64,000 nt of DNA from Thermoanaerobaculia bacterium (lineage in GTDB: Bacteria > Acidobacteriota > Thermoanaerobaculia > Gp7-AA8), in NCBI GenBank assembly GCA_036398925.1, contig DASWOB010000071.1, positions 8,425 to 72,424 of the forward strand, written 5' to 3'. This document shows, piece after piece, positions 7,520 to 58,683 of this stretch. The notes beneath the pieces were generated by a model. That model did no database searches, was not told the origin of the DNA, and saw only the letters and a list, made by a program, of their open reading frames with translations. A program made the translations under genes and the position numbers. Within the stretch, counting starts at the first letter, position 1. Every line of letters starts with the position of its first letter.

Positions 7520-7567
7520 GGAGTCTTCCTCTCAGGTTGCCTGCGGATGGAGTGGTATGGGCGAGGT

Positions 7568-7597
7568 GCGCCCGCCCCGCTTGCGAGGGGCGGGCGC
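7568..7597 (-). terminator. GC-rich hairpin after beta-helix gene 2
   Basis: GCGCCCGCCCC / GGGGCGGGCGC 11-bp stem with an 8-nt loop, 8 nt downstream of the stop at 7605. Confidence 0.5.
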
Positions 7598-7604
7598 GCG
7601 CCGG

Positions 7605-9728: not shown

Positions 9729-9778
9729 GGAGTCGTTCCTCTAAATAGTTGCGGTGTTGAACGGTGTGGTCGAGGAGC

Positions 9779-9804
9779 GCCCGCCCCCTCCAGCAGGGGC
9801 GGGC
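9779..9804 (-). terminator. GC-rich hairpin after beta-helix gene 3
   Basis: GCCCGCCCC / GGGGCGGGC stem with an 8-nt loop, 10 nt downstream of the stop at 9814. Confidence 0.45.
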
Positions 9805-9813
9805 CTGGTCAGG

Positions 9814-11928
9814 TCAGTAGCTGATCTTTAGCTGATAGGTCGTGCGCGTTGACGCGTAACGCCAGACGAGGACGGAGACGTTGACGGCCGAGGAGCCGGT
9901 GTTGGTCCAGGACGCCTGATCCGCGGTCGTCCCGCCATTCTCGGAGCTCGCCACCTCCGTCCCCGCCGCGTTGTAGAGATAGAGGTCGTAGTCCACCGAG
10001 AGGCCGTTGAGCAGCGCGGTGACCGTTCGCCCCGCCGGCACGCTCAGAACGAAGAAGTCGTTCTTCTGCGTACTCGAGTCGTTGAGGAACGTCCCAGAGA
10101 TCTGGTTGCAGCTCCCCGAGATCGCCTGCGCCCCGGCGATGCTGTTGTTCGGCTCCACGTCCGAGATCGAATTGCAGCTTGCCGCCGCGTAGGTGACTTT
10201 CAGTTGATACGTCGTGCGAGCATGCTGGGTCTCACGGAAGACGAGGACGTAGACGTCGATCGCCGAGGCGCCGTTGTTGGTCCAGGACGCCTGGTCGGGG
10301 GTCGTGCCGCCGTTGTAGGAGGAACCGACCCAGTTTCCGAAGGCGTCGTAGATCTCCAGGTCGTAGTCCGCCGTGAGGCCGTCGAGCAGTGCCGTCACCG
10401 CGTGGCCGGCCGGCAGGTTCAGGCGGAAGTAGTCGTACTCCTCCTGCAGCGGGGTCGCGTCGTTGGTGAAGGTTCCGGAGATCTGATTGCAGGTTCCCGA
10501 GATCACCTGCGCCGTGGCCCCGCTGTCGTTCGGCTCCGCGTCCGAAATGGAATTGCAGGCCGGGGGCGGCGGCCCCGAGACTGCCGGCCGGATGGCCAGC
10601 GCCGGCGTCCACCCGGGGTTCGTGCCACTGCCGGAGTAGGCACCGCGGAAGGTCGCGTCCCGCGACGTGCCGTTGAAGTCACGGTTGTAGTCCAGCAGCG
10701 ACGTGAACGGGGTGTAGTCGATGGCGGTGCCCTGGAGCTGTCCGCTCTTCGGGAAGAGGTCGAGGCCCGATCCGAGAGCCGCCATCGGGTTGTTGAGGTA
10801 GGTCGAGGCCTGGGAGTAGGTACCGGTCACGTTGTTGCTCTGCTGCCCGCCGGTCAGCGGGGTGCCGGCGAACACGGCGTTGCCGACCACGCGCTGCGGG
10901 TAGGCGGGGTCGGCGCCCGAGATCCGGATCCCGTTCAGGCCGGCGACGATGGTGTTGTTGAAGACTTCGATGCGCCTGGGGACGCTGTTGTGCGCCTGGA
11001 TCCGGATTGCGTCGCTGTTGCGATTCACCAGCAGGTTGTCGTGGAAGGCGAGGTTGCCTTCCCCCTGGAACAGCGACTCGGTGGGGTTCTGATAGAAGAG
11101 GTTCCCGTAGATCTGGTAGATATCCGTGGAGCCGGCGCCCGAGAGCGGCCAGTGGCCGACCAGGAGGTTCGGCGCGCTGCCGCCCGCCTCGTTGGCGAAG
11201 GTGTTGTAGCGGATGATCGTCGTGCCGCTCGAGGGCGCACCGACGCCCGTGCTGCGGGCGAGCTGGTGCTTGAACTGCGCGTTGTAATCGAGGGTGTCGT
11301 AGATCAGGTTGTACTCGACCAGCGAGTTGGAGATCTCGTAGTAGCCGGAGGAGTCGCCGAGATACATCCCGGTGCCGGTGGCGCTGATCGTGGTGTGGCG
11401 GATGACCCAGTTCCAGGCCGGGCACTTGGTGCTGATGCCGACCCGGAGATAGTTCGGGTTGAAGTTGGTGATGTTCAGCCGCTCGATCAGGATGTGATGC
11501 ACGGAGACAGCGGTGGCCTCGGCTTTGACGCCGTCTCCCGCCTTATCGAGACCGTCGAGCGACAGGTTCCGCACGGCGATGTAGCTCGAGTCCTTGAGGC
11601 TGATGACGTTCCAGCTGTCGCTGCCGGTGAAGAGGGCGGGGGAGCCGCTGGCCGGACCCTCGAAGACGATGCACTTACCCGGCTCCCCGTGCTTGTTCAC
11701 GATCGGGAGGCCCTGGGTGTAGGTGCCGGCGGCGAACTGGAGCCGGTCACCCGGGATCAGCCCCGCGATCAGCGAGCGGTAGTTGGAAGGAGTGGCCTGG
11801 ATGGTTCGGAGAGGGGCTGCGCCGTTGCAGCCGCTCAAGGTGTCGGCGAGAGTCTGGGCGTGGGTGGGCGCGGCGGCGAGGACGAAAAGTGTGGCGATCG
11901 CGGTCCGGAGAAGGGCCTTCCTCAACAT
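9814..11928 (-). CDS. Secreted parallel beta-helix protein with two C-terminal PPC domains (paralog 3)
   Basis: Start moved to the internal Met (MLRKALLRTAIATLFVLAAAPTHA) by analogy with the two paralogs. The upstream 52 codons of ORF 9814..12084 are Arg/Cys-rich junk. Confidence 0.88.
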   Translation of the reverse strand: MLRKALLRTAIATLFVLAAAPTHAQTLADTLSGCNGAAPLRTIQATPSNYRSLIAGLIPGDRLQFAAGTYTQGLPIVNKHGEPGKCIVFEGPASGSPALFTGSDSWNVISLKDSSYIAVRNLSLDGLDKAGDGVKAEATAVSVHHILIERLNITNFNPNYLRVGISTKCPAWNWVIRHTTISATGTGMYLGDSSGYYEISNSLVEYNLIYDTLDYNAQFKHQLARSTGVGAPSSGTTIIRYNTFANEAGGSAPNLLVGHWPLSGAGSTDIYQIYGNLFYQNPTESLFQGEGNLAFHDNLLVNRNSDAIRIQAHNSVPRRIEVFNNTIVAGLNGIRISGADPAYPQRVVGNAVFAGTPLTGGQQSNNVTGTYSQASTYLNNPMAALGSGLDLFPKSGQLQGTAIDYTPFTSLLDYNRDFNGTSRDATFRGAYSGSGTNPGWTPALAIRPAVSGPPPPACNSISDAEPNDSGATAQVISGTCNQISGTFTNDATPLQEEYDYFRLNLPAGHAVTALLDGLTADYDLEIYDAFGNWVGSSYNGGTTPDQASWTNNGASAIDVYVLVFRETQHARTTYQLKVTYAAASCNSISDVEPNNSIAGAQAISGSCNQISGTFLNDSSTQKNDFFVLSVPAGRTVTALLNGLSVDYDLYLYNAAGTEVASSENGGTTADQASWTNTGSSAVNVSVLVWRYASTRTTYQLKISY

Positions 11929-12074
11929 GGAGTTGTTTCCTCTCGGTATGTAGGTGCGGCGTTGTACGGCACAACGAACGACGCTGAAGCGGATTTCAGC
12001 GCACAGCCTTAAGGACGGACGTATGCAACGCTGGAGCCGGAGATCGCGGGACCGGCACTTGCAGCGACATTGAC

Positions 12075-12440
12075 GTGCCGACACGTGAGGCCCGCTACAG
12101 GTTTTCCGACGATGTGCGGGCCACGACCCGCGCCATTGCCCTGCGCATGATTCACGCGGGAGCGGTGGCCGCCTCGCCGGAGGAGCTCGAGGCGTGGATC
12201 GCCCGAACCGACGACGTGCGCGAGAGGCTGACCAAGGGCGGTTACGGCTCCAGGTTCGCGGCGGGCGATCTCTTTCCGCTTTTTCAGGGTTTCGTCGCGA
12301 AGGCGACGGCTGCGAAGGCGACGGCGAGTGCGGCCGCGGCTCCGCGTGGAGCGCGGCCGGGGAGGTGGGTGTGGATCGGGGCGATCGTCGTGGTGGCGAT
12401 CGTGGTGATCATTGTCGTGGCGCGTGGTGTGGGCTTTTAG
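12075..12440 (+). CDS. Hypothetical tail-anchored membrane protein
   Basis: GTG start. Soluble helical N-terminus, Ala-rich linker and a C-terminal TM segment WVWIGAIVVVAIVVIIVVA. No family recognised. Confidence 0.45.
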   Translation: MPTREARYRFSDDVRATTRAIALRMIHAGAVAASPEELEAWIARTDDVRERLTKGGYGSRFAAGDLFPLFQGFVAKATAAKATASAAAAPRGARPGRWVWIGAIVVVAIVVIIVVARGVGF

Positions 12441-21368: not shown

Positions 21369-22706
21369 TTACGGCGTGGCGTTCGACGCCGGCTTGATGG
21401 TGGCGTCTTTCGCCGCGGACGGCGTGCAGCCGTTGGCGAGCATCGTGGCCGGCATGGCCATCGAGTAGCGGCCTTCGGCGGTCATCATCGGCAGGATCCA
21501 CGACTGGCCGGGGCGCGGGCCGTGCTTCGTGGAAGAGCCGCTGCTCATGTCGCGGGAGGAGTGGTAGCTCTCCGAGCCGCCGTTGTCGGCGTTGAGGTAG
21601 ATCCAGCCGTGGACGTCGCCGGTGGTGAGGGCGGGGAGATAGTCGCTGAGCGTGGAGAGGCGCGCCGCGGCGGGGAGGTAATTGCCGCCGGTGGCGAACG
21701 GGACGGAGGTCATGGGGTTCTCGCGCTCGTCGAAGCGCACCACCTCGGCCAACTGCGTCTCGATGCCCTTCTGCACCGTGTCGCAGGTCGCGCTCGCGGC
21801 GGCGGTCGCTTCGCGCCACAGGAGCAGGTCGGTCTGGAAGCCGCCGGTGCTGCCCTGGATGTAGCGCGCGGCCCAGGCGGAGGGAAGCGGCTGGCGTCGG
21901 TCGGAGAATGCTTTCGCTCTCGGGAGGAAGCGGTCGTAGAAGGTGTACGGCAGCGAGGTGGCGACCATTGCTCCCGCCCGGCCGCCTTCCGGAACGGCGC
22001 GGATGTGCACCAGCGATTCGCCGCCGGCGAAGTTGCCGATGAGCGGGTTCGGGAGGACGAACTGGTAGTCGCCGGTGAGGACGTTGTCATAGAGGAGCTG
22101 ATCGAAGTACCTGGCGTCGTTCGGCAGCAGGGACGAGCAGGTGGCGACGAGGTCGATGGTGATGAAGCCGGTGGCCATCAGATGCTGCCCGCCGACACGC
22201 GCGTTCGCGCCGCAGCCGGTCTTCGTGCCGAGGGTCAGCACCTGGCGCAGCTCAGCCAGGAGCTCGGGAGAGAGCGGGGGAGGCGGCGCGGAGCAGGCCT
22301 CGAGCGCGGTGTTGAGAAAGTTCGGGTTGTCGTCGTTCTGCTGCGAGTAGCCGCCGCGTGCGCTTTTGGCCGAGCCGGCGTGGATCGTCCCGCGCACGAG
22401 CACGTCGCGCAGGTTGATCGACTGCGCGTCGTAGCCGGTCAGGAAGACGTCGAACGACAGCACCGGGTAGGCCCAGTCGGTCCAGAGCGTCACGTTGGCG
22501 ATCTGCGGACGGCTGGTCACATTGGTCACGGTGAAGAGCGTCGTCTGCGCGTCCTTGTCGGCGGCGTGCAGGTCGACCTCGAAGTACGGCAGCAGCAGCG
22601 TGGCCGCCGGAAGGGTGGCGATGTCGCAGGTGTCGTCATTGTTCGTCGACGGCCCGGCAAAGGCCGGCAATGCGAGCAGGAGGAGGAGTGCGAGCGGCTT
22701 CCTCAT
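21369..22706 (-). CDS. Secreted protein with one copy of an unassigned ~400-aa module ('PYFEV module'), paralog A
   Basis: Start at the internal Met MRKPLALLLLLALPAFA. Motifs TCDIATLPAATLLLPYFEVD, FLTGYDAQSIN, DNVLTGDYQ, VHIRAVPEGG, DRRQPLP, VRFDERENP, AEGRYS, ANGC. ATGA overlap with paralog B. Confidence 0.9.
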   Translation of the reverse strand: MRKPLALLLLLALPAFAGPSTNNDDTCDIATLPAATLLLPYFEVDLHAADKDAQTTLFTVTNVTSRPQIANVTLWTDWAYPVLSFDVFLTGYDAQSINLRDVLVRGTIHAGSAKSARGGYSQQNDDNPNFLNTALEACSAPPPPLSPELLAELRQVLTLGTKTGCGANARVGGQHLMATGFITIDLVATCSSLLPNDARYFDQLLYDNVLTGDYQFVLPNPLIGNFAGGESLVHIRAVPEGGRAGAMVATSLPYTFYDRFLPRAKAFSDRRQPLPSAWAARYIQGSTGGFQTDLLLWREATAAASATCDTVQKGIETQLAEVVRFDERENPMTSVPFATGGNYLPAAARLSTLSDYLPALTTGDVHGWIYLNADNGGSESYHSSRDMSSGSSTKHGPRPGQSWILPMMTAEGRYSMAMPATMLANGCTPSAAKDATIKPASNATP

Positions 22707-24094
22707 GGTGTTTCGTTTCCTCCCGGGCCGATGGCGGCGCTGGCGTTCGAGCCGCTTTTGGCCGGCGCGATCGAGCAGCCGTTGGCGAGCATCGTCGCGT
22801 CGAAGAGCGCCGAGTAGCGCGACTCCGCGTACATCGACAGCGACAGCCAGTTCTGGCTCTGCCGCCGGCCGACGGTGGTGCTGGAGTTGCTCGTGAAGTC
22901 GCGTCCCGGCGCGGTGCTGTAGCTCATCGAGCCGCCGTTGTTCGCGTTCACGTAGAGCCATCCCGCCACTTCGCCGGGAACGCTCGGTGGGAAGAGCTCG
23001 GAGGTCGTCGGGATGCGCGCCGCGGACGGCACGGCGGCGATGGCGTTGCTGATGGCGGTCGGATTCTCGCGCTCATCGAAGCGGACGATCTCCGTCACGT
23101 CCATGGCCCCGTTCGGCGCGAGGCCGCACGCGTCGCCGCGTCCCATGGCCGGCTCGCGCCAGAACTGAAGCTCGGTCTTGAACTGGCCGGCGCCCCCTTC
23201 GACGTAGCGCGTGGCGAACGTCGAGGGGAGCGGCTGGCGGCGATCCTTCCGCCGCGCGTCGTCGGGTGTGTAGAGGTCGTAGAAGGTGTACGGCAGCGTC
23301 GACTCCACCTCGGCGCCGGCGCGTCCCCCTTCCGGCACCGCGCGCAGATGCACCATGGCCGCGCCGCCCGCGTAGTTGCCGACGTTCGGATCGGGCGAAA
23401 GGTGCTGGTAATCGCCCGTCAGCACGTTGTCGTAGAGGATCTCGTCGTAGTACCCCGGGTCGGCCGGCGTGCGGCTGTTGCAGGTGGAGACGACGTCGAT
23501 GGTGATGTAGCCGGTGGCGTTGGCGTGCGTACCGCCGACGCGTTTCGCTCCGCAGCTGCTGATCACGCCGGTGGTCAGCGCGCTGCGAACGTCCTGCAGC
23601 AGCGCCTCCGGCACACGCTGCGCCTGGAACGGGCAGCTCTGCGCCGCGTCGGAGCGGAAATGCGGATTGGCGTGATTCGGCAGCGAGCGCGCGCCCGGGA
23701 TCTTCGCCGTCGACCACTGCTGCATCAGGATGCCGCGCGCCAGGACGTCGAACAGGTTGATCGACTCCACGTCGTAGCCGGTGAGGAGGAGGTTGTACGA
23801 GAGAACCGGATAGCCCCAGTCGGTCCAGATGGTCACGTGCGCGATCTGCGGCTCCGGCACGGTGTTGACGATGGTGAAGAGGGTGGTCTTCGCGCGGATG
23901 ATCGACGCGTCGAGCTGCACTTCGAAGTAGGGGAGCAGCAGCGTCGCGGCCGGCATGACCGCGACGTCGCAGGTGTCATCGTTGTTCGTGCTGTGGGGAC
24001 GGGAGGTCGGGAACGTCGCGGCGAGCGCCGAGACGGTGAGGAGTGATGACAGCAACAGGACCAGGGAACCGTGAGTGCGAGGGAACCGGAACAT
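22703..24094 (-). CDS. Secreted single-module PYFEV-module protein, paralog B
   Basis: Signal-like N-terminus, then TCDVAVMPAATLLLPYFEV and the same ordered motif set. In-frame conservation with four other genes. Confidence 0.9.
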   Translation of the reverse strand: MFRFPRTHGSLVLLLSSLLTVSALAATFPTSRPHSTNNDDTCDVAVMPAATLLLPYFEVQLDASIIRAKTTLFTIVNTVPEPQIAHVTIWTDWGYPVLSYNLLLTGYDVESINLFDVLARGILMQQWSTAKIPGARSLPNHANPHFRSDAAQSCPFQAQRVPEALLQDVRSALTTGVISSCGAKRVGGTHANATGYITIDVVSTCNSRTPADPGYYDEILYDNVLTGDYQHLSPDPNVGNYAGGAAMVHLRAVPEGGRAGAEVESTLPYTFYDLYTPDDARRKDRRQPLPSTFATRYVEGGAGQFKTELQFWREPAMGRGDACGLAPNGAMDVTEIVRFDERENPTAISNAIAAVPSAARIPTTSELFPPSVPGEVAGWLYVNANNGGSMSYSTAPGRDFTSNSSTTVGRRQSQNWLSLSMYAESRYSALFDATMLANGCSIAPAKSGSNASAAIGPGGNETP

Positions 24095-24165
24095 CTGGCG
24101 CAGCCTCCCGACCGGTTATGGTCTCACGCCATAACTAGGTGAGCACTCTATGCTGGGGAGGCATG

Positions 24166-24192
24166 CCGTTACAAGAGTTATTCGTGTAACGG
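24166..24192 (-). terminator. Hairpin downstream of the small secreted-protein gene
   Basis: CCGTTACA / TGTAACGG 8-bp stem with an 11-nt loop, 13 nt after the stop at 24205. No U-tract. Confidence 0.3.
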
Positions 24193-24204
24193 TTCAGTGA
24201 AGCC

Positions 24205-24624
24205 TTACTTGTCGCCGCTGGTCGTGACGCTGAGCTTCGCCCGCTCCCGCTCGGTCCGCTCGATCCGCCGGATCTCGGCGTTGATTGCCCGGCGCTGCTG
24301 TCGTGCGACGCGCGGCGGCGTGGCCATCACCGTGCGGGTGATGAGGAAGGGATCAGGCATCTCCTGCGAAGTGCGGGGCGTCGTTCCGTGCAGCGGCGCG
24401 AGGAACGGCAGGTAGGCGAAGTTCCACCGCGTGCCGAGGGCGTTGAACTGCACCGTGCCGACATGGAAAGTAATGGGCGGGCGCTCCTCGCGGGGGGCTT
24501 CCGCGACGAAGATGCGCATCAGCGTGTCGCGCGAATAATCGACGTCGTCGTCGGACTCCTGGGCGAAAGCCGGCAGGGCGAAGAGGAGGAGAAGCGGCAG
24601 GATCAAAGTCGCGTTCGGTTTCAT
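24205..24624 (-). CDS. Hypothetical small secreted protein embedded in the paralog cluster
   Basis: Start at the internal Met MKPNATLILPLLLLFALPAFAQ (signal peptide). 139 aa with a basic C-terminal helix RQQRRAINAEIRRIERTERERAK. No family recognised. Confidence 0.6.
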   Translation of the reverse strand: MKPNATLILPLLLLFALPAFAQESDDDVDYSRDTLMRIFVAEAPREERPPITFHVGTVQFNALGTRWNFAYLPFLAPLHGTTPRTSQEMPDPFLITRTVMATPPRVARQQRRAINAEIRRIERTERERAKLSVTTSGDK

Positions 24625-24680
24625 CGCATCACCTGAGACGGACACCATGCAAGAGTGTTACTCATTTGGCAATGGGAGAG

Positions 24681-24740
24681 GCGGTTCCTCGGGTTCCTCG
24701 GCAGGTCTGTCGGTCCTGCCGAGGAACTCCGAGGAACCGC
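24681..24740. repeat. GGTTCCTCG-array palindromic element
   Basis: GCGGTTCCTCGGGTTCCTCGGCAGG ... CCTGCCGAGGAACTCCGAGGAACCGC. Confidence 0.8.
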
Positions 24741-24744
24741 CTTA

Positions 24745-27375
24745 CTACGGTTGAATGGGATTCGTGACGCTGTCTTCGCTCGTCGTTCCTCGGACCTGCG
24801 AGCAGCCGTTACCCAGCGACGTGGCGTCCGCTCCAACGGCGTAGCGTCCCTCGGCCGACATGGCTGTGACGACCCAGGCCTGGGCGGCGGAGATCTGGTT
24901 GTTGCTTTCGGGCCGGGCGAGATTCAGGTACATCCATCCCGCGACGTCACCACTCTGCAGCGGCGGGAAATATTCGTCCGATGACGGCAGCCGCGATGAC
25001 GACGCGAGCAGCTGGGGCGCCTCCGGGAAGCCGATGGTCACGTCGGGCCGGGCGACCGTGGTTGGATTCTCCCGCTCATCGAAGCGGACGGCCTCGACGT
25101 ACGCCGTCAGGTTCTCGTCGTAGTTCGAGCAGATCGCATCCGCCGCGCGGGCCGGCTCGCGCCAGATCAGGAAGTCGGTGAGGAAGGACGTGCCGCCGCC
25201 CTCGATGTAACGTCCGGCGAAGCGCGTCGGCAGCGGCTGGCGGCGATCGCGGTGCGTACCGCCGTAGAAGCCGTCGTAGAACGTGCGGTTGAGATTGGTC
25301 GCCACCTGCGAGCCGGCCGCGCCCCCTTCACCGATCGCGCGGATGTGCACGAGCGGGCTGCCGAGGGCGAAGTTGCCGCTGGCGGAGTTCGGCGTGACGA
25401 ACTGATAGTCGCCGGTCAGGACGTTGTCGAAGAGCAGCTCGCCGATCGCTCCGGCGTCTTTCGGCGACTTGCCGGAGCAGGTCGCGACGACGTCGATCGT
25501 GACGTAGCCGATGGCGTTCGCATGCGCGCCGCCGACGCGGTCCGAGCTGCACGACTGCGGGATGGTGCCCTGCGTCAGCGCACGGCGTATGGCCTCAGTG
25601 ATGGTCGCCGGCAGCACGCGCGGCAGGTTCGCGCAAGCGGTGGCGGCATTCGCAAGGAAGCGGTCGTTGCCGGCCAGCGAGCGCGAGCCGCGCGTGGCGT
25701 TCGAGCTCGTCCCCGGCAGGACGCCGCTCATGAGGATGTCGCGGATGTTGATGGCCTGGACGTCGTAGCCGGTCAGGAAGATGTCGAAGCTGATGACCGG
25801 GAACGACCAGTCGGTCCAGATCGTGGCGCGCGCGATCTGCGGCTGGTTGGTGGTGTTGACGACGGTGAAGAGCGTCGTCTGCGAGCTGCTCACGTCCGAA
25901 TTGACGTCGACTTCAAAGTACGGCAGCAGCAGCGTCGCGGCCGGAAGCTGGGCGACGTCGCACGAGTCATCGTTGCGATGGGTGACGGCCGGCGAGGCGG
26001 GGAGCGCGTCATTGAGGGTGGTGCGCGCCGGACCGATCGGACGGACTGTCGCGTTCGAGGCGGCCATGGTCGGCGAAGCGGGTGCGGTGCCGCAGCCGTT
26101 GCCGAGGGCAGTCACCTCGATGCCGGTGGCGTAGCGGCCCTCCGCGGCCATGCGCGTCACCACCCAGGCCTGGCTCTGGCGGAGGCCGCGGACCGTGCTC
26201 GAGTCGGTGACCAGATCGAAGTTGTTCGACGCGCTGTAGGCGCTCGACCCGCCGTTGTTCAAATTGAGGTACATCCAGCCGGCGACGTCATTCGACAGCG
26301 GCGGGAAGAGCTCCGACGCGGTGCGGACGCTGGAGCTGACCGGCAGCGACGACTCGCTCGTTTTGACAGTCGGATTCTCCCGCTCGTCGAAGCGGACGAT
26401 CTCCGCCAGCGGGGCGTTGTTCGACGCGACGTCGCCGCACTGGCGCGGCCCGCCGGTCATCGATTCCCGCCAGACGATGAACTGCGTGTCGAACGAGGCG
26501 TTGCTGCCTTCGATGAAGCGAGCGGCGAAGGTCGTCGGCAGCGGCTGGCGGCGATCGGTGCGCCGCTTGCCGGCGGGCGTGAGGCGATCGTAGAAGGTGA
26601 AGGGGAGCGGAGAGACGGTGCTCGATCCGGCCGAACCACCTTCCGGCACGGCGCGGATGTGGACGGCCGGTGCCCCCTCCGCGTAATTGCCGGTGGTGCC
26701 GCTCGGCGCGATGATCTGCCAGTCGCCGGTCAGCACGTTGTCGAACAGCAGCTGATCCCAGTACGACTCCCGCAGCGGATGGTCGCTCGTGCAGGTGGCC
26801 ATCAGGTCGATGGTGATGTAGCCGGTGGCGAGGTTCGCGTTCGGAATGGCCACCGGCTGCGAGCAGATGCTCGTTCGCCCGGTCTTGAAGGCGTTCTCGA
26901 CGTCCAAGAGCAGCCCCGAAGGAAGGTTCGTCGGGATGCGCTCGCAGTTCGTGGCCGCCGAGGGGAGGAAGTTCGGGTTGTTCATGTTGGGCTGCGAACG
27001 ACGGCCGGGGGTGGTCCTGCTGGTCGTCCCGCTCGGCGGTGCGATCAGGCCGCGTACGAGCACGTCGTATAGATTGATGGCCTGCACGTCGTAGCCGGTC
27101 AGGAAGACCGGGAAGTTCATCACCGGATGGTCGAGGTTCGTCCAGATGGTGACGCTCGCGATCTGTGGACGGCTGGTCACATTGGTGATCGTGAAGAGCG
27201 TCGTCCGCGCCGTGGAGGCAGGACCGTACTCGAGCTCAAAGTACGGGATCAGCAGCGTCGCCGCCGGCTGGGTGGAGATATCGCAGCTCGAATCCGTGGC
27301 GTTGGTGAAAGGACGGGTGTCCTGGGCGAAGACGGGCAAAGCGAGAACGAGCAGCACCGGCAGTAGCTTTCGCAT
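24745..27375 (-). CDS. Secreted two-module PYFEV-module protein, paralog C
   Basis: Signal peptide MRKLLPVLLVLALPVFAQ. Module 1 ends at GNGC near 26090. Module 2 restarts with SCDVAQLPAATLLLPYFEVD. Confidence 0.92.
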   Translation of the reverse strand: MRKLLPVLLVLALPVFAQDTRPFTNATDSSCDISTQPAATLLIPYFELEYGPASTARTTLFTITNVTSRPQIASVTIWTNLDHPVMNFPVFLTGYDVQAINLYDVLVRGLIAPPSGTTSRTTPGRRSQPNMNNPNFLPSAATNCERIPTNLPSGLLLDVENAFKTGRTSICSQPVAIPNANLATGYITIDLMATCTSDHPLRESYWDQLLFDNVLTGDWQIIAPSGTTGNYAEGAPAVHIRAVPEGGSAGSSTVSPLPFTFYDRLTPAGKRRTDRRQPLPTTFAARFIEGSNASFDTQFIVWRESMTGGPRQCGDVASNNAPLAEIVRFDERENPTVKTSESSLPVSSSVRTASELFPPLSNDVAGWMYLNLNNGGSSAYSASNNFDLVTDSSTVRGLRQSQAWVVTRMAAEGRYATGIEVTALGNGCGTAPASPTMAASNATVRPIGPARTTLNDALPASPAVTHRNDDSCDVAQLPAATLLLPYFEVDVNSDVSSSQTTLFTVVNTTNQPQIARATIWTDWSFPVISFDIFLTGYDVQAINIRDILMSGVLPGTSSNATRGSRSLAGNDRFLANAATACANLPRVLPATITEAIRRALTQGTIPQSCSSDRVGGAHANAIGYVTIDVVATCSGKSPKDAGAIGELLFDNVLTGDYQFVTPNSASGNFALGSPLVHIRAIGEGGAAGSQVATNLNRTFYDGFYGGTHRDRRQPLPTRFAGRYIEGGGTSFLTDFLIWREPARAADAICSNYDENLTAYVEAVRFDERENPTTVARPDVTIGFPEAPQLLASSSRLPSSDEYFPPLQSGDVAGWMYLNLARPESNNQISAAQAWVVTAMSAEGRYAVGADATSLGNGCSQVRGTTSEDSVTNPIQP

Positions 27376-27410
27376 TCCATGTTCTCCTGCTACAGCGAAA
27401 CGAGATTTCG

Positions 27411-27463
27411 TGCGCCGTCCGCGGCGCGGGGAACAATGCCATGCGCCGTCCGCGGCGCGGGGG
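27411..27463 (-). terminator. Two tandem copies of a short GC hairpin between paralogs D and C
   Basis: TGCGCCGTCCGCGGCGCGGGG occurs twice, 31 nt apart. Each has a GCGCCG/CGGCGC stem with a 4-nt loop. No U-tract. Confidence 0.3.
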
Positions 27464-27465
27464 AT

Positions 27466-29715
27466 TTAACGCAAAGGTCCGATGGTGGTCTCAGGTATGG
27501 CGGAGCAGCCGTTGCCGAGTGCAGCGGCGTCGAACGCGGCGGCATAACGCCCTTCCGCGAACATCGAAGAGATGACCCAGCCCTGGTTCGCGGTTTTCTC
27601 GCGGGTCTGAACCGAGAGATCCAGGTACATCCAGCCGGCCACGTCGCCCGACTGTAGCGGCGGGAAGAAGTCGGCCTGTGAGGCGATCCGCCCCGTCACC
27701 GGCAGCGTGTACTCGCGCGGCACGCCCGGGAAGTGGGTCTGCGGGATGTGGACGGTCGGATTCTCGCGCTCATCGAAGCGTACGAGCTCGCCCACCCTGG
27801 TCCGGCCGTTCTCGGCGTACGACGCGCACGCGCCGCGGGCCGGCGTCGTCGGCTCGTGCCACACCAGAAAGTCGGTGAGGAATCCTGACGTGCCCCCCTG
27901 AATGTAGCGCGCCGCAAAGGATGATGGCAGCGGCTGGCGCCGATCGCGTCCCGTCCCGCCGTAGAAGCGGCTGTAGAACGTGCGCGGCAGTGCCCCTTCA
28001 GCGTTCGCGCGGATGTGCACCATCGCATTGCCGGCCGCGTAATTGCCGAGGGCCGGATTCGGCTGCACGTGCTGCCAGTCGCCGGTCAGGACGTTGTCGA
28101 AGCGGAGGTCGGCCAGCGCCTCGAGCTCGTTCGGCGATCGGCCGGAGCAGTTGCCGACCACGTCGATCGTCGCATAGCCGATGGCGTACGCGTGCGCATT
28201 ACCGATGCTCTCGCTCCCGCAGGCGCCGGCGAAGCGGCCGGTCGTCAGCGCGCTGCGAACGTCGTTCAGCAGCGACGCCGGAATGGTCCGCGGTAGCCCG
28301 TCGCACTCGCCGGGCAAGCGCCCACCGGTCAGCAGCTCGCGCAGGTTGATCGGCTCCGCGTCGTAACCGGAGAGCAGCATGTCGAAAGTCAGCACCGGAT
28401 AGGCGCGGTCGGTCCAGAGGGTCACCCGGGCGATGCGCGACTCATTGCTGGTATTGATGACCGTGAAGAGCGTCGTCGGCGCCACCGTCGGCGGCGCTGT
28501 GACATCGGCTTCGAAGAAGGGGAGCAGGAGCGTCGCCGCCGGAAGCTGGGCGACGTCGCACGAATCGTCGGCGCGGACGGGGCCGATCGGCGCGGGCTCT
28601 CGCGGCGCGCAGCCGTTGCCGAGCGGCGTGGCGTCGATGCCGGTCGCATAGCGGCCCTCCGCGCTCATCCGTGTCACCACCCATCCCTGACGGCCGAGGT
28701 CGAGGTACATCCAGCCGCCGACCTCGTTGCCACGCGGCGGAAAGAGCTCGCTGGCCGTGTGCACGCTGGCAGCGACCGGAAGCGAGACCGTGGAGAGTTG
28801 CTCGGTCGCATCACCCTCCTCGTCGAAACGGACCACATCGCCGAGTGGGCCGGCCTCTTCGCGCCAGACGATCAACTCCGTGTCGAAGGAGGCTGCCCCT
28901 CCTTCCGTGAAGCGCGCGGCGAAGCTCGACGGCAGCGGCTGCCGGCGATCGGTGCCGCGTCTTCCTTCCGGCAGGAGGCGGTCGTAGAAGGTGAGCGGCA
29001 GCGACGAGACGGTGGCGGCTCCGGCAGGACCACCCTCCGGAATGGCGCGCAGATGAACGGCCGCACTGCCGCCGGCGTAATTACCGGCAGGCGGATTCGG
29101 CGAGATGATCTGCCAGTCGCCGATCAGCACGTTGTCGTACAGCAGCCCATCCCAATACCCTTCCTCGGCTGGTGTCCGCGCGGTGCAGGTGGCGCTGACG
29201 TCGATAGTGACGTAGCCGGTCAGATGACGTCCGTCCCTCAACGCGGTCTGCAGTTCCGCCAGCAGCGCCGGCGGCAGGTTCACCGGCACCACCCCGCGTG
29301 CGCAGTTCGCCGCGGCGGAGGGGAGGAATCGCGGATTGGCGCTGTTTGCGAGCGATCGCGACCCGGGCGTGGTCGCATTCGACGTTCCGAAGTCGGGAGC
29401 GATGATGCCGCGCCGGAGGACGTCCAACAGGTTGATGGCCTGCACGTCGTAGCCGGTCAGAAAGATCGGGAAGGTCAGCAGCGGCCGGCCGCTGCTCGTC
29501 CAGATGGTCACGCTCGCGATCTGCGGTGTGTTGGTGACGTTCGTGACCGTGAAGACCGTCGTCCGCGCGTTGATGAGGCGCTCGGTGGCGTCCACCTCGA
29601 AGTACGGCACCAGCAACGTCGCTGCCGGCATGACCGCGATCTCGCAGCTCGTGTCGTTCTCCGTCTGGGCGAAGAGCGGAAGCGCGAGCGCGAGGACGAT
29701 CAGCAGTCGTTTCAT
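27466..29715 (-). CDS. Secreted two-module PYFEV-module protein, paralog D
   Basis: Start at the internal Met MKRLLIVLALALPLFAQ, 1 nt after the paralog E stop. Module 1 is shortened (lacks the NNGGS segment). Module 2 starts at SCDVAQLPAATLLLPFFEAD. Confidence 0.9.
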   Translation of the reverse strand: MKRLLIVLALALPLFAQTENDTSCEIAVMPAATLLVPYFEVDATERLINARTTVFTVTNVTNTPQIASVTIWTSSGRPLLTFPIFLTGYDVQAINLLDVLRRGIIAPDFGTSNATTPGSRSLANSANPRFLPSAAANCARGVVPVNLPPALLAELQTALRDGRHLTGYVTIDVSATCTARTPAEEGYWDGLLYDNVLIGDWQIISPNPPAGNYAGGSAAVHLRAIPEGGPAGAATVSSLPLTFYDRLLPEGRRGTDRRQPLPSSFAARFTEGGAASFDTELIVWREEAGPLGDVVRFDEEGDATEQLSTVSLPVAASVHTASELFPPRGNEVGGWMYLDLGRQGWVVTRMSAEGRYATGIDATPLGNGCAPREPAPIGPVRADDSCDVAQLPAATLLLPFFEADVTAPPTVAPTTLFTVINTSNESRIARVTLWTDRAYPVLTFDMLLSGYDAEPINLRELLTGGRLPGECDGLPRTIPASLLNDVRSALTTGRFAGACGSESIGNAHAYAIGYATIDVVGNCSGRSPNELEALADLRFDNVLTGDWQHVQPNPALGNYAAGNAMVHIRANAEGALPRTFYSRFYGGTGRDRRQPLPSSFAARYIQGGTSGFLTDFLVWHEPTTPARGACASYAENGRTRVGELVRFDERENPTVHIPQTHFPGVPREYTLPVTGRIASQADFFPPLQSGDVAGWMYLDLSVQTREKTANQGWVISSMFAEGRYAAAFDAAALGNGCSAIPETTIGPLR

Positions 29716-29716
29716 C

Positions 29717-32185
29717 TCAGTGTGGTCCGATCGGGTTCTGTGCGTCGCTCTTGGGCCGCAGTGGCGCGCAACCATTGCCGAGCGAGGTCGCGTCGAACGC
29801 CACCGCGTACCGTCCCTCGGCGTGCATCGTCGTCACCACCCAACCCTGCGACGGGCCGGCCTGCTGGTCGAGGCGCGCCAGGTTGATGTACATCCATCCC
29901 GCCACGTCTCCTGATTCGAGGAGAGGAAAGAGGCTGTCGGACGTCCGCACGCGCGTCGTGGCGGCGAGTTTGGGATGATGGTATTCGGGCGGCAGCGGGA
30001 CAATGATCGACGGTGACCAGGTGGTCGGGTTCTCGCGCTCGTCGAAGCGGACGTTCTCGATGTACGGCATCGCGCTGTTCTTCGCGAAATCGCGACAGCT
30101 GGCGCTGCTCCCCGTCGTCCCGTCCATCCAGATCACGAAGTCGGTGAGGAATCCCGCCGAGCCTCCCTGGATGTAGCGGGCGGCGAACGCGGCCGGCAGT
30201 GGCTGCCGCCGATCGCGCCGGTGGCCGGTGAGGCGCTCGTAGAACGTGTGCGGAAGGTCTGCGGCCGTCTGGCCGCTCACCGCCCGGATGTGCACGAGCG
30301 GACTGCCGTACGCCTGGTTGCCGGTGGCCGGATTCGGGTCGACGTACTGGTAATCGCCGGTCAGAACGTTGTCGAACGCCAGCTCGTCGTGCGTGCCCGG
30401 CGCCTTCGCCGAGCAGGTCGAGACGAGGTCGATCGTCACATAGCCGGCCGCTTTGAGGTGCGTTCCGCCGATGCGCGTCGTTCCGCAGGATCCCGTCAGT
30501 CCCATGCGCAGCGCGCGCGTCACGTCCTCCCGCGCCGCCGGCGGCAGCGAAGCGGGGAGGCTCTCGCAGCCGCCGATCTCGCCGAACGAGCGCACGCCCC
30601 GCGGCGAGACCGCCGAGCCGGTCGCAGGGAGGCGGCCATCCACCAGCACGTCGCGCAGGTTGATGGCCTGCACGTCGTAGCCGGTCAGGTAGATGTCGAA
30701 CGTCAGCAGCGGATACGACCAGTCGGTCCAGACGGTCGCGCGTGCGATGCGCGGTGCGTTGGTGGTGTTCGTGACGGTGAAGAGGGTCGTCGCGGCGACG
30801 TTCGGCGGCGCGTCGACGTCGACCTCGAAGCGGGGGAGCAGCAACGTCGCCGCGGGAAGGAGCGCGATGTCGCACGAGTCGTCGGACGGCGTCGGCGCGA
30901 TCGGCCGGATCTGCGCACCGACGGTCTGCATGGCCGGACTGGGCGGCGCGGGCGTGCAGCCGTTGCCCATGGCCGTCACCTCGATGCCGGTGGAGTAACG
31001 CCCCTCCGCCTTCATCCGGCTCATCATCCAGGCCTGGCTCTGACGCCGGCCGCGCACGCTGCTCGAATCGCTGATCAGGTCGACGCCCGGAGCCACGCCG
31101 TACGCGGGCGAGCCGCCGTTGTTGAGATTGACGTACATCCACCCGCCGACGTCGTTCGTCAGCGGCGGAAAGATGTCCGCTGCCGTGCGGACACTGGCGA
31201 CGACCGGCAGCGAGCTCACATGCGTCTGTACGGTAGGATTTTCCCGTTCGTCTAGTCGCACCACTTCGGCGAAGACCGTCTCGTTCGTCTCCAGCTCACT
31301 GCAGTTGCGCGGCGCGCCGCTCATCCCCTCGCGCCAGATCACGAGCTCGGTCTCGAACGCCCCTCCCTCGATGTAGCGCGCGGCGAACGTCGACGGCAGC
31401 GGCTGGCGGCGATCGCGGCGTCCGCTCAGCCGGTCGTAAAACGTGAACGGCAGCGTCGTCTCGGCCGGCATCGCCCGCAGATGCACCATCGGAACGCCGG
31501 CCGCGTAATTTCCGGTGACCGGATTCGGCGAGATGAGCGCCCAATCGCCGGTCAGCACGTTGTCATGGAGCAGTTGATCCCAGTAGTAGCCGGGGTCGAT
31601 CGGCGACAGCAGGAGGCACGTCGACACGACGTCGATGGTGATGTAGCCGATGGTCAGGCCGTTGCTCGCCGGGATCGCCACCGCATGATCACCGCATCCC
31701 GTGACCCGCCCCTTCTCGAATCCATTGCGCACGTCGCCGAGCAGCGACGGCGGAATGGTGAGCGGCATCGACGTGCGCGAGCACGACTCCTGCGCCGACA
31801 GCAGAAACTTCGGATTGGCGCTGTTCGCCAGCGAGCGCGATCCCGGCGTCGTCGCGTTCGACGTGCCGAGGGTGGGCGCGATCAGGCCGCCCACCAGAAT
31901 GTCGTACACGTTCAGCGCCTGCACGTCGTAGCCGGTCAGGAAAACCGGAAAGTTCAGCAGGGGATGATCGAGATTCGTCCAGAGCGTCACGTTCGCGATC
32001 TGCGGCGACTGGGAGACGTTCACGATCGTGAAGACCGTCGTCCTGGCCTGTGTGATCGGACGCCCGAGCTCCACCTCGAAGTACGGCACCAGCAGCGTCG
32101 CCGCCGGCTGCATCGCGATGTCGCAGACGTCCTGGGCAAAGGTGGGCACCGCGAGGAGAAGGAGCAGTAGCGCGACGATCCGCAT
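29717..32185 (-). CDS. Secreted two-module PYFEV-module protein, paralog E
   Basis: Signal peptide MRIVALLLLLLAVPTFAQ. Modules start at VCDIAMQPAATLLVPYFEVE and SCDIALLPAATLLLPRFEVD. Ends ...SLGNGCAPLRPKSDAQNPIGPH. Confidence 0.92.
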   Translation of the reverse strand: MRIVALLLLLLAVPTFAQDVCDIAMQPAATLLVPYFEVELGRPITQARTTVFTIVNVSQSPQIANVTLWTNLDHPLLNFPVFLTGYDVQALNVYDILVGGLIAPTLGTSNATTPGSRSLANSANPKFLLSAQESCSRTSMPLTIPPSLLGDVRNGFEKGRVTGCGDHAVAIPASNGLTIGYITIDVVSTCLLLSPIDPGYYWDQLLHDNVLTGDWALISPNPVTGNYAAGVPMVHLRAMPAETTLPFTFYDRLSGRRDRRQPLPSTFAARYIEGGAFETELVIWREGMSGAPRNCSELETNETVFAEVVRLDERENPTVQTHVSSLPVVASVRTAADIFPPLTNDVGGWMYVNLNNGGSPAYGVAPGVDLISDSSSVRGRRQSQAWMMSRMKAEGRYSTGIEVTAMGNGCTPAPPSPAMQTVGAQIRPIAPTPSDDSCDIALLPAATLLLPRFEVDVDAPPNVAATTLFTVTNTTNAPRIARATVWTDWSYPLLTFDIYLTGYDVQAINLRDVLVDGRLPATGSAVSPRGVRSFGEIGGCESLPASLPPAAREDVTRALRMGLTGSCGTTRIGGTHLKAAGYVTIDLVSTCSAKAPGTHDELAFDNVLTGDYQYVDPNPATGNQAYGSPLVHIRAVSGQTAADLPHTFYERLTGHRRDRRQPLPAAFAARYIQGGSAGFLTDFVIWMDGTTGSSASCRDFAKNSAMPYIENVRFDERENPTTWSPSIIVPLPPEYHHPKLAATTRVRTSDSLFPLLESGDVAGWMYINLARLDQQAGPSQGWVVTTMHAEGRYAVAFDATSLGNGCAPLRPKSDAQNPIGPH

Positions 32186-32389: not shown

Positions 32390-32830
32390 GGGCGTCCTTC
32401 GAAAAGGACACCGCCCTCGTAAATCATCAGAGCTGTGTCCTTCGAGAGAGACACCGCCTGTTGAATCACAACGGCTGCCTCGTTCGAGAAGGAGACCGTC
32501 CTCGTAAATCATCAGGGCTGCCTCGTTCGAGAAGGAGACCGCCCTCGTAAATCACCAGGGCTGCCTCGTTCGAGAAGGACACCACCCCGTAAATCATCAG
32601 GGCTGCCTCGTTCGAGAAGGACACCGTCCTCGTAAATCATCAGGGCTGCCTCGTTCGAGAAGGAGCCCGTCCTCGTAAATCATCAGGGCTGCCTCGTTCG
32701 AGAAGGACACCGCCCTTGTAAATCATCAGGGCTGCCTCGTTCGAGAAGGACACCGTTCTCGTAAATCATCAGGGCTGCCTCGTTCGAGAAGGACACCGCC
32801 CTCGTAAATCATCAGAGCGGTCTCGTTCAC
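32390..32830. repeat. 43-bp tandem repeat array (about 8 well-conserved plus 2-3 degenerate units), non-coding
   Basis: The unit GGCTGCCTCGTTCGAGAAGGACACCGCCCTCGTAAATCATCAG repeats head-to-tail (one unit is 42 bp). There are no unique spacers. The period is not a multiple of 3 and stops occur in all frames. Confidence 0.95.
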
Positions 32831-32883
32831 CCGCGAGCGGTGACATCGAAAAGCCCTGTCCCCCAGCAGTCCCAGCCACTCCG

Positions 32884-32985
32884 TTTGTCATCCTGAACGA
32901 AGTGAAGGACCCCCTCCCCACAGGCGAATACGCATGGTGCATCGCTCATGGGGAGGGGGTCCTTCACTTCGTTCAGGATGACAAA
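32884..32985. repeat. Perfect 37-bp inverted repeat (large hairpin/cruciform)
   Basis: TTTGTCATCCTGAACGAAGTGAAGGACCCCCTCCCCA, then a 28-nt loop, then the exact reverse complement. Confidence 0.95.
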
Positions 32986-33183
32986 GCGGGGGGGAGGGAG
33001 GACGCGTGAAGGGGACGACACTCCAGGTCGCGCTGCTGCCAAACCGCCTCACCGCTGCCGCACGACCGCAACGTCCGGACCTCGGAAGACTTCCGGCCAA
33101 TTCCGGCCAATTCCAAACTTCCGCACCCTCACATCAGGGTGGGGTGGAAGCCCACACCATACGGCGGAGCAGTTCGGATCGGA

Positions 33184-34044
33184 TCAGGGCGTGAAAATGC
33201 CGACGTCGTTCGTCACGCTGGTCGACGACAGCACCGCCCACCAACGCAGCGCATCCGAATCGGGCTCGATCTCGATGCGCAGCGAGGTCTCGCCGCCGCC
33301 GATGAAATCGAAAAGCTGCGCCGTGGCCGGCAGGTAGCCGGCCGCTGGAAGATCGCAGCCGCCGAAGCAGGGCGCGACCGCTCCGGTGGGCGGGTCGAGC
33401 GTGAGCGTGGTCGTCGACAGCAGCGTCTCTTCGGCCGTTTGCCGCGCCGAGCGGATGTCGTACACCCGCACCGTCACCCGCGCCCCTTGCGCCGTTTCCG
33501 GCAGGGCGTAGATCCGCAGCGCGTAGCGCGAGCCGCTCACCTTCGGCACCGACAGGATGCTGCGCGTGCCGCGAAGGAACTCCCCCTCCGGCACCGCACG
33601 CAACTGCGCGGGCGCCGCCGCCTTCGGCGATCCGAACGTCACCCAGTTCAACGACCCGCCGATCGTCACCTGGTCGATCGCCGCCGTCTCGACGTAGAGG
33701 AACGCCCCCGGCCTGTCGCTGACGATCGGAACCGATGGCGGCACCAGAGGCGACGGAATCACGTCACCGGCGTGACAGAGCATCGTCCGCTCCGGCGGCA
33801 GCGCCGGCTTCCCGATGATCGACACGCCCGGTCCGGGGAGCGGCAGTCCGCACATCCAGGCCAGCGGAAAAACGTCGGCCGCGCTCTTTCCCTCATTGCG
33901 GAAATGCCACTGCACCGTCCAGCCACCATACGACGCGCTGACCGATCGATGCACCGGCAGCAGCACGCGCGTGTAGTCGGCCGGATTGCGTTGGGCGAAC
34001 GCGTTGACCGCGAAGAGCATCACCAGCAGCATGCGTTTCATCAT
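33184..34044 (-). CDS. Hypothetical secreted protein translationally coupled to the Ser/Thr kinase
   Basis: Start at MMKRMLLVMLFAVNAFAQ (signal peptide). ATGA overlap with the kinase stop. 286 aa, beta-rich. The remaining N-terminal part of ORF 33184..35277 overlaps the kinase gene out of frame. Confidence 0.75.
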   Translation of the reverse strand: MMKRMLLVMLFAVNAFAQRNPADYTRVLLPVHRSVSASYGGWTVQWHFRNEGKSAADVFPLAWMCGLPLPGPGVSIIGKPALPPERTMLCHAGDVIPSPLVPPSVPIVSDRPGAFLYVETAAIDQVTIGGSLNWVTFGSPKAAAPAQLRAVPEGEFLRGTRSILSVPKVSGSRYALRIYALPETAQGARVTVRVYDIRSARQTAEETLLSTTTLTLDPPTGAVAPCFGGCDLPAAGYLPATAQLFDFIGGGETSLRIEIEPDSDALRWWAVLSSTSVTNDVGIFTP

Positions 34045-36680: not shown

Positions 36681-36780
36681 CGGTTCCTCGGGTTCCTCGG
36701 TTCCTCGGAGTTCCTCGGGTGGTCACAGGCAGCGGCGTCCGGCCGCTCCGCGGCGGACCCGAGGAACCCCGAGGATCCGC
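36681..36780. repeat. GGTTCCTCG-array palindromic element (asymmetric arms)
   Basis: Four GGTTCCTCG-type units on the left and two CGAGGA(A/T)CC units on the right. Lies between the kinase start and the S46 stop. Confidence 0.8.
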
Positions 36781-47912: not shown

Positions 47913-48008
47913 GGTTCCTCGGGTTCCTCGGTTCCTCGGGTTCCTCGGGGGGAACTCCCTCGAAGCGCCGAGGAACTCCGAGGAACCCGAGGAACCGAGG
48001 AACCGCCT
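47913..48008. repeat. GGTTCCTCG-array palindromic element
   Basis: Four GGTTCCTCG units, a spacer, then four CGAGGAAC(C/T) units. Lies in a divergent intergenic region. Confidence 0.85.
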
Positions 48009-51490: not shown

Positions 51491-51600
51491 GCGGTTCCTC
51501 GGAGTTCCTCGGAGTTCCTCGGGTTCCTCGGCCCAACTCCGCACTCCCCCGAGGAACCGAGGAACCCGAGGAACTCCGAGGAACCCGAGGAACTCCGAGG
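51491..51600. repeat. GGTTCCTCG-array palindromic element (largest copy)
   Basis: Four units on the left (GCGGTTCCTCGGAGTTCCTCGGAGTTCCTCGGGTTCCTCGG) and six complementary units on the right (CGAGGAACCGAGGAACCCGAGGAACTCCGAGGAACCCGAGGAACTCCGAGG). Confidence 0.9.
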
Positions 51601-56392: not shown

Positions 56393-56791
56393 CTAGGACT
56401 CGGCCTTCCGGGGGAGCGGTTCCTCGGTTCCTCGCGGTTCCTCGGTTCCTCGGAAGTCGGCAGGCGTTTCGAACGCTGTCGGAGTTTCGACGGCTGTCGC
56501 TGTTTCGACACCTGCCGCTGCTTCGGCGATCTCGGTGGCGGGCGACGCTGGCTCACTCCTTGATACGGTCTCGAAGTCGAACGGCGTAACTACCGGGGTC
56601 GCAATCTTTTTCAGCTCTTCGAGACGAACTTCCCGCTCGATCGTGTTCTTGATGTCGTCCGTCGCCTTACGGAACTCGCCGAGCGCTTTTCCGAGCATGC
56701 GTCCGATCTCCGGAATCCGGCGGGGGCCGAAGACGACCAGTACGACGACGAAGATCAGCAGGATCTCAGGTACGCCTAACGAACCGAACAT
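56393..56791 (-). CDS. tatA: Twin-arginine translocase subunit TatA/E with an extended C-terminal tail
   Basis: MFGSLGVPEILLIFVVVLVVFGPRRIPEIGRMLGKALGEFRKA is canonical TatA. The 132-aa ORF continues through a VET/FET repeat and a GGTTCCTCG repeat arm (RGTEEPRGTEEP) to a TAG that abuts the tatC ATG. Confidence 0.88.
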   Translation of the reverse strand: MFGSLGVPEILLIFVVVLVVFGPRRIPEIGRMLGKALGEFRKATDDIKNTIEREVRLEELKKIATPVVTPFDFETVSRSEPASPATEIAEAAAGVETATAVETPTAFETPADFRGTEEPRGTEEPLPRKAES

Positions 56792-58592: not shown

Positions 58593-58683
58593 CGGTCCTC
58601 GCAGTTCCTCGGGTTCCTCGGTTCCTCGGCGGAACCGCCGCACATCCGAGGAACCGAGCAACCGAGGAACTCCGAGCAACCGA
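58593..58683. repeat. GGTTCCTCG-array palindromic element
   Basis: CGGTCCTCGCAGTTCCTCGGGTTCCTCGGTTCCTCGG ... CCGAGGAACCGAGCAACCGAGGAACTCCGAGCAACCG. Confidence 0.85.

Follow-up and report, generated by a model that had tools for sequence, protein, structure and literature searches.

An expanded, unnamed family of exported proteins in Thermoanaerobaculia with a possible role in glycan binding

Background

Bacteria of the class Thermoanaerobaculia occur widely in soils and sediments and are almost uncultured, and their cell envelope is essentially undescribed. In a 64,000-nucleotide stretch of a genome of this class (GenBank assembly GCA_036398925.1, contig DASWOB010000071.1, positions 8,425 to 72,424 of the forward strand; hereafter the window), a first-pass annotation made from the letters alone drew attention to five tandem minus-strand genes, here A to E, which encode eight copies of a secreted module of about 400 residues. 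It could match the module to no domain family and singled out the array as the window's strongest candidate for an undescribed system. What, then, are these modules, how widely are they distributed, and what might they do at the cell envelope? We tentatively read them, at somewhat less than even weight, as exported, disulfide-stabilized glycan-binding proteins that act as pairs and have been expanded in the window. The lead toward glycans comes from the combination of a predicted sandwich resembling those of TM1070 and ASRT with a conserved operonic link between a single-copy member of the family and the Wzm/Wzt exporter.

Results and discussion

A cluster of six genes and eight modules

On the basic layout of the array the first-pass annotation was right: all five minus-strand genes are present, at the coordinates that it gave, in the list of open reading frames (ORFs) of the window. 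In the direction of transcription, gene E (29717..32185, 822 amino acids) encodes a signal peptide followed by modules E1 (30950-32140) and E2 (29762-30889), and gene D (27466..29715, 749 amino acids) a signal peptide followed by two shortened modules, of which D1 (28603-29664) lacks three loops and two cysteines and D2 (27499-28575) lacks the loop at residues 87-120. Gene C (24745..27375, 876 amino acids) likewise combines a signal peptide with two modules, C1 (26086-27300) and C2 (24796-25977), while genes B (22703..24094, 463 amino acids) and A (21369..22706, 445 amino acids) each encode a signal peptide and a single module, at 22769-23989 and 21420-22646, respectively. The mechanical ORFs of A and D begin further upstream, at 22961 and 29775, respectively; a signal peptide is obtained with the starts given in the first-pass annotation, 22706 and 29715, which we adopted. 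The 445-residue product of A, the protein that we modelled, matches an entry of the protein database (P0003) with 100% identity and 100% coverage.

Ten motifs (PAATLL, DNVL.GD, DRRQPLP, VR[FL]DE, AE[GS]RY, NGC, TFY, VH[IL]RA, G[YF].TID and L[TS]GYD) were tested, and each is present in a single copy in A and B and in two copies in C, D and E, always in the same order, which bears out the eight copies with an ordered motif string. When delimited by cutting at PAATLL and NGC, the modules are 355-410 residues long, display pairwise identities of 45-63%, and have 90 invariant columns in common. A hidden Markov model (HMM) of the module, run against the six-frame translation of the whole window, matches these five ORFs and nothing else, with domain E-values from 1e-121 to 1e-199 (6e-181 for E1 and 3e-175 for E2); D2 is split into two pieces, the shorter of which scores 7e-43.

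The inventory of five genes was correct as far as it went, and it overlooked a sixth, a small minus-strand gene (24205..24624) in the gap between C and B, which codes for a protein of 139 amino acids with its own signal peptide. The six genes form one same-strand cluster in the order E-D, C, small gene, B-A, which is possibly a single operon. Both coupled pairs noted earlier are evident: the stop of B and the start of A overlap as ATGA, and the stop of E and the start of D stand 1 nucleotide apart (TGA G ATG). A scan of the locus for promoter and terminator consensus sequences was uninformative, and an Rfam scan found a tRNA far from the locus and nothing else.

Export, cysteines and the C-terminal tail

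The signal-peptide-like N-termini described in the first-pass annotation also held up. A heuristic call of signal peptides finds a basic N-terminus and a 10-residue hydrophobic core in all five proteins (mean Kyte-Doolittle hydropathy 2.5-3.5), with an AXA-like site by a simple rule in four of the five; the signal of D ends in LFAQ instead. A 19-residue hydrophobicity scan beyond residue 40 flags one window, in A, and none in B-E. On these sequence features, A-E are predicted to be proteins exported by the Sec pathway. The number of cysteines per protein is even (6, 6, 12, 10 and 12 in A to E), and the fixed spacing already seen within the array extends well beyond it: across 162 modules from 83 loci, the conservation of C10, C121, C173, C291 and C410 (residue numbers as in mature A) is 98-100%, and a sixth cysteine switches between two positions. 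Because fixed cysteine positions are here combined with predicted export, each module probably contains three disulfides.

Past the NGC motif the proteins carry a C-terminal tail of about 22 residues with the consensus IGPxPNxTP-COOH (for example at 21372-21410 and 22706-22745 of the window). The final residue is proline in 196 of 229 family proteins, 83 of which end in N-x-[ST]-P. A comparable sequon-like pattern recurs inside the module, where in 162 of 181 cases x-[ST] comes directly after an invariant asparagine of strand 2. The tail and the Asn-x-[ST] pattern could represent signals for sorting, protease protection or glycosylation.

A class-wide family without a name

The statement that the module belongs to no known domain family is upheld by sequence searches and is qualified below by one structural resemblance. 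Neither the five proteins nor the small partner match any model of Pfam-A 2025 or NCBIfam 20.0 at E<=1, or of PHROGs v4 or PADLOC 2.0 at E<=0.01, and a sequence profile search of the PDB returned noise at E about 1, the best match being to a GT25 protein at E 0.9. The family itself is very large, as came out of the HMM search for its spread that the first-pass annotation had recommended. A word-indexed protein search recovered at least 2,415 clusters at 90% identity; an exhaustive HMMER search, at least 1,878 clusters at 50% identity with E<=1e-3 (780 with E<=1e-30); and a scan of one genome per GTDB species, at least 564 stretches matching the module. The 79 species-representative loci that we fetched are all titled as Thermoanaerobaculia or Acidobacteriota metagenome-assembled genomes, often with several loci in the same genome. 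Every source name given to the members is 'hypothetical protein', none has a precomputed Pfam domain, and literature searches on the family, on envelope proteins of Thermoanaerobaculia and on the combination of Wzm/Wzt with FG-GAP proteins returned nothing relevant.

In the sampled loci the arrays range from singletons to at least seven consecutive modules (loci L019, L054 and L010) and reach up to about ten. The family is thus a large, unnamed, class-wide expansion in Thermoanaerobaculia, of which the window is a typical and not a unique instance. Of the claim of an undescribed system, the unnamed family survives; the array is not special to the window, and as it consists of paralogues and one small partner gene, 'system' is too strong a word for it.

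A few members are fused to other domains, and these supply a first contextual hint. P0130 combines two modules with PKD and BACON domains, and P0262 combines two modules with Calx-beta; the much longer P0240 and P0260, of 1.8-1.9 kilo-amino acids (kaa), combine PKD domains and two diverged modules with an extended N-terminal region, and P0133 shows a weak fn3 match beside its module. The fused PKD, BACON, fn3-like and Calx-beta domains are extracellular adhesion or carbohydrate-associated domains. Catalytic partner domains were sought among the fused members and none was found; a partial M28 fragment in P0217, considered as a catalytic fusion, looks like a gene-call artefact.

A predicted sandwich resembling TM1070 and ASRT

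An AlphaFold2 model of mature A, built from an alignment of 118 sequences, has a predicted local distance difference test score (pLDDT) of 93.3 and a predicted template-modelling score (pTM) of 0.93, and consists almost entirely of beta-strands. Eight strands in residues ~19-218 form an N-terminal sandwich, which is interrupted after strand 5 by a partly helical insertion of ~80 residues with two of the conserved cysteines; a second beta-sandwich spans residues ~260-400. The structural comparison that had been proposed as a check, run with Foldseek, found no analogue of the whole module in the PDB or in the viral BFVD library. The sole confident matches of the model are TM1070 of Thermotoga (1nc7), with a probability of 1.0 and a TM-score of 0.73-0.79 when normalised to the 117-residue target, and ASRT, the sensory rhodopsin transducer of Anabaena (2ii7/2ii8), with probabilities of 0.38-0.72. 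When the C-terminal half was modelled alone (pLDDT 84.9), these matches were not recovered: against the PDB there was nothing at E<0.1, the best probability being 0.6 for the C-terminal sandwich of the subtilase KP-43, and the CBM-, CUB- and subtilase-C-domain-like matches were all insignificant. As the C-terminal half lacks the TM1070/ASRT matches and the count of eight strands agrees with the other half, the TM1070-like part would, by elimination, be the N-terminal sandwich. An origin of the two sandwiches by internal duplication was rejected (N- versus C-terminal half, hhalign probability 0.1).

De Souza, Iyer and Aravind defined the ASRAH superfamily, which includes ASRT and TM1070 (PF07100), as eight-stranded sandwiches with a predicted sugar-binding function (PMC2739507). 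Its hallmark is a nearly invariant asparagine that closes strand 2 and stabilizes an ungapped tight turn to strand 3, and strand 2 itself lines the ligand cleft (PMC2739507). The module shares with these domains the eight-stranded sandwich as well as an invariant asparagine closing strand 2 and a short fixed turn: N45, equated with the ASRAH asparagine by position and without superposition, is invariant in the 118 sequences and ends strand 2 (38-45), and strand 3 (51-58) follows after 5 residues. T38, T39 and T42 of the same strand are conserved at 94-100%, so that the strand reads TT..T..N, whereas that of ASRAH reads SHE..C..N. There is also a parallel in context: extracellular ASRAH versions occur as dyads or tetrads adjoining glycosyltransferases (PMC2739507), reminiscent of the module pairs and their glycan-export setting described below. 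The differences are considerable, in that the sandwich of the module is interrupted by the two-cysteine insertion, a second, unrelated sandwich of ~170 residues is always attached to it, and the module as a whole exceeds ASRT more than threefold in size. We hence regard the connection to ASRAH as a structural resemblance of the model, and superfamily membership as undemonstrated.

Other extracellular beta-sandwiches, namely CBM6, CBM35 and the accessory domains of GH2, GH50 and GH78 enzymes, dominate the weak Foldseek lists of both the whole module and its C-terminal half, and PKD, BACON and fn3 domains accompany these sandwiches as they do the module. These matches are insignificant, with probabilities <=0.38 and TM-scores <=0.33, and no Pfam CBM model matches the module.

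A single-copy member in a Wzm/Wzt operon

The second strand of the argument comes from gene neighborhoods. In about 28-30 species a single-copy member of the family is embedded in a same-strand operon with the order wzm (ABC-2 permease), FG-GAP protein, module, PKD protein (1.3-1.8 kaa), wzt (ABC ATPase with a Wzt_C domain), GT2 and GT2-methyltransferase; the operon of L063 additionally has a gene for a GNAT acetyltransferase. Among the 79 species-representative loci, the module gene has an FG-GAP gene as a neighbor in 29, wzm in 28 and the PKD-protein gene in 26, and the order is kept even where the identity of the PKD proteins falls to about 30%. The operon contains the standard components of an ABC-transporter-dependent surface-glycan pathway together with three large exported proteins between wzm and wzt. 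Wzm/Wzt exporters are paired with surface proteins in the O-antigen ABC pathway and in the S-layer glycosylation clusters of Geobacillus and Paenibacillus, and wzm, wzt with Wzt_C, GT2 and methyltransferase genes recur likewise in the operon of the single-copy member. Unlike it, the described Wzm/Wzt pathways are not known to have three large exported proteins between wzm and wzt, and literature searches found no description of the wzm-FG-GAP-module-PKD-wzt arrangement. No gene for a ligase or oligosaccharyltransferase was seen at the singleton operon, though no search was aimed at one. The PKD protein of the operon was considered as a further module carrier and set aside, as it holds no module and the module-bearing P0240 and P0260 differ from it in architecture.

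A TPR gene is transcribed divergently upstream of the operon (L063 6736-19510; also, for example, L052, L076 and L078).

The small partner and the probable pairing of modules

The small protein encoded between C and B is cysteine-free and ends in a basic, helix-like C-terminal tail (NAExRRIER). It is 32-35% identical to the products of small genes adjoining module genes in L001 and L002, and 12 of 83 loci have a homologue of it next to a module gene, on the same strand every time; the small-partner family as a whole comprises 113 clusters, nameless and without a Pfam domain. Loci of this type hold from one to about nine modules and, as in the window, also carry a gene for a Ser/Thr kinase-PD40 propeller protein (65% identity to the L006 copy); some also hold a gene for an S46 peptidase, again as in the window. 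Because the small partner and the synteny of the Ser/Thr kinase-PD40 gene are shared, the window is to be seen as an expanded form of a conserved locus that has 1-4 modules elsewhere.

The sequences of the modules also point to a pairing of long standing. C1, D1 and E1 are mutually 58-63% identical and 47-52% identical to C2 and E2; the N-terminal modules being closer to each other than to the C-terminal ones, a two-module gene appears to have been duplicated as a unit. In seven species with two adjacent single-module genes, first copies are 65% identical to first copies and second to second 64%, as against 54% between partners, which suggests that the two-gene pair is old and has been retained. 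Among the stop-to-stop ORFs of the sampled loci, 15 have two full modules and 132 have one. As coupled neighbors, such as B-A and E-D, alongside fusions are the usual signature of cooperating proteins, we infer that the modules work in pairs.

Upstream of gene E is a stretch of ~1 kb without a convincing gene, in which a 43-bp unit is repeated in about 10 tandem copies (87% matches; 32398-32828), the nearest of them 213 nucleotides from the start of gene E. The unit is absent from the rest of the window and from all 82 related loci that we fetched, and the repeats could have a regulatory or phase-variable function for the module genes. Beyond it is an inverted repeat (32870-32999) with 58-nucleotide arms, 84% complementary and 14 nucleotides apart, which resembles a terminator or a miniature mobile element. 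It separates the 43-bp array from a minus-strand ORF of 278 amino acids with a signal peptide (33184-34020), which itself stands between the Ser/Thr kinase-PD40 gene and the module array. This ORF has no match in Pfam, PHROGs or PADLOC, and a relationship to the module by divergence was rejected (hhalign probability 2.5%).

What the modules may do

If the modules are glycan-binding proteins, they would act as lectin-like proteins of the periplasm or cell surface, holding a sugar in a conserved, ASRAH-like cleft of the N-terminal sandwich that would be lined by strand 2. They would function as hetero-pairs, supplied either by two coupled genes or by two modules fused in one chain. The binding core would be conserved and the variable loops would be mostly in the C-terminal sandwich, where the most variable and indel-rich loops of the family (residues ~316-327 and ~356-383) are indeed found. 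The ancestral role would be that of the single-copy member between wzm and wzt, which may bind, organise or anchor the exported polymer along with the FG-GAP and PKD proteins; the array of the window would be a separate, diversified branch with its own small partner, grown to eight modules. For these paralogues any link to a Wzm/Wzt polymer is putative.

Several observations weigh against this proposal. The window itself has no wzm or wzt genes, its paralogues are 41-46% identical to the operon-embedded singletons, and the flanks of other long arrays show no conserved enzymes or neighbors. On the structural side, the placement of the TM1070-like part in the N-terminal half of the model was reached by elimination and strand counting, with Foldseek residue ranges absent, and strand 1 (AATLLLPYFEV) is without the tryptophan of ASRAH. 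The Pfam model of the ASRT family, PF07100, does not match the module at E<=1. Remote homology to ASRT was rejected by hhalign with a single sequence (probability 0.1) and again with a 120-sequence ASRT alignment, itself shallow at 77-100% identity, with or without the insertion (probability <=0.3). Further, ~65 polar positions are conserved at >=90% in the 118 diverse sequences, many of them Asp, Glu, His and Arg, which exceeds the usual need of a lectin and looks enzyme-like.

This conservation is the best argument for a different interpretation, that the modules are new extracytoplasmic glycan-processing enzymes (hydrolases, lyases or similar), with the singleton trimming or releasing the Wzm/Wzt polymer and the paralogues acting on other polysaccharides, own or foreign. 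The conserved set includes D76, D168, D190, N191, D196, H217, R219, Y240, D252-R253-R254-Q255, R281-E282, R307-D309-E310-E312, Q384, E394 and R396, is accompanied by four conserved tryptophans, and is kept in all eight modules of the window. The fused PKD, BACON and Calx-beta domains are typical companions of carbohydrate-active enzymes, and the module is located in a conserved glycan-export operon; synthase-type exopolysaccharide operons often hold a dedicated glycanase, such as AlgL, BcsZ, PslG or PelA. Yet, to our knowledge, pathways of the ABC-transporter (Wzm/Wzt) type do not include a glycanase, no known catalytic fold or motif was detected, and the glycosidase matches in Foldseek do not exceed a probability of 0.38. 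Moreover, with no carbohydrate-active sandwich or jelly-roll catalytic domain among the Foldseek PDB matches of probability >0.4, a pure sandwich without an analogue among the jelly-roll enzymes of the PDB would be an unusual catalytic scaffold, and we consider an enzymatic role rather unlikely. An improbable option, in our judgement, is that the modules are self-assembling subunits of a surface layer, sheath or fibre, in which the subunits touch through the conserved N-terminal strand and the C-terminal tail, with the paralogue arrays as a source of surface variation and the Wzm/Wzt polymer as the glycosylation or the anchor of the layer. The family frequently forms tandem arrays, of 2 to about 10 paralogues, its hetero-pairs are kept across species, and both the strongly conserved extreme C-terminus and the sequon-like pattern of strand 2 would suit such a role, as would the large FG-GAP and PKD surface proteins next to the operon member. 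There are precedents as well: the S-layer gene of several Gram-positive bacteria lies next to a glycosylation cluster of the ABC-transporter type, and Campylobacter fetus maintains its S-layer paralogues in arrays. Against it, Pfam and NCBIfam reveal no anchoring domain (SLH, CWB2, LPXTG, PEP-CTERM or the T9SS C-terminal domain), there is no C-terminal hydrophobic helix, the family is conserved along its whole length whereas surface-layer proteins usually diverge fast, and no lattice or fibre protein is among the structural matches.

Arrays of exported paralogues next to a small conserved gene also recall secreted effectors of other kinds, such as a toxin or bacteriocin, for which the small protein would be the immunity factor or chaperone, or a new peptidase; peptidase genes occur close to the array both in the window and at syntenic loci, and the neighboring S8, S46 and M3 genes would suggest a proteolytic lifestyle. 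The small partner, though, has its own signal peptide and amounts to ~113 clusters as against thousands of module clusters, the peptidase neighbors are encoded on the other strand and do not accompany the family in general, and no toxin, defence or peptidase model matches, all of which leaves such a function very improbable.

Other features of the window

A second tandem array is present on the minus strand at 5132-12084, where ORFs of 795, 707 and 756 amino acids each have C-terminal PPC (pre-peptidase C-terminal) domains; one of them has a beta-helix region, and their large N-terminal parts are otherwise without assignment. This array contains an internal repeat of 324 bp at 5503-6131. Elsewhere, the 9-mer GGTTCCTCG and its reverse complement CCGAGGAAC occur in short runs, sometimes as facing pairs, at 36681-36720, 47913-48004, 51494-51600, 56416-56453 and 58646-58683, and look like a dispersed hairpin-forming element of the REP or terminator kind.

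Conclusions

Lineage-specific families without a known function are common in metagenomes, and this tempers the weight of our finding. Should the modules turn out to be ordinary lectin-like binding proteins, its value would be mainly one of annotation, in that thousands of 'hypothetical proteins' could be assigned to a new domain family. The module would also be a further, very different extracellular sandwich of the TM1070/ASRT-like kind, for which sugar binding is a prediction only (PMC2739507).

A more far-reaching outcome, which we think doubtful, is that the modules represent a new functional class specific to Thermoanaerobaculia, either an unknown fold of glycan-active enzyme or a hetero-paired subunit of a surface array that is assembled on, or glycosylated by, the Wzm/Wzt polymer. 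In that event assembly or anchoring would be the dedicated task of the small exported protein, and the thousands of paralogues would amount to a major envelope component of abundant, almost uncultured soil bacteria. The placement of the single-copy member within the glycan-export operon offers a hypothesis on how the Thermoanaerobaculia may build or decorate their surface.

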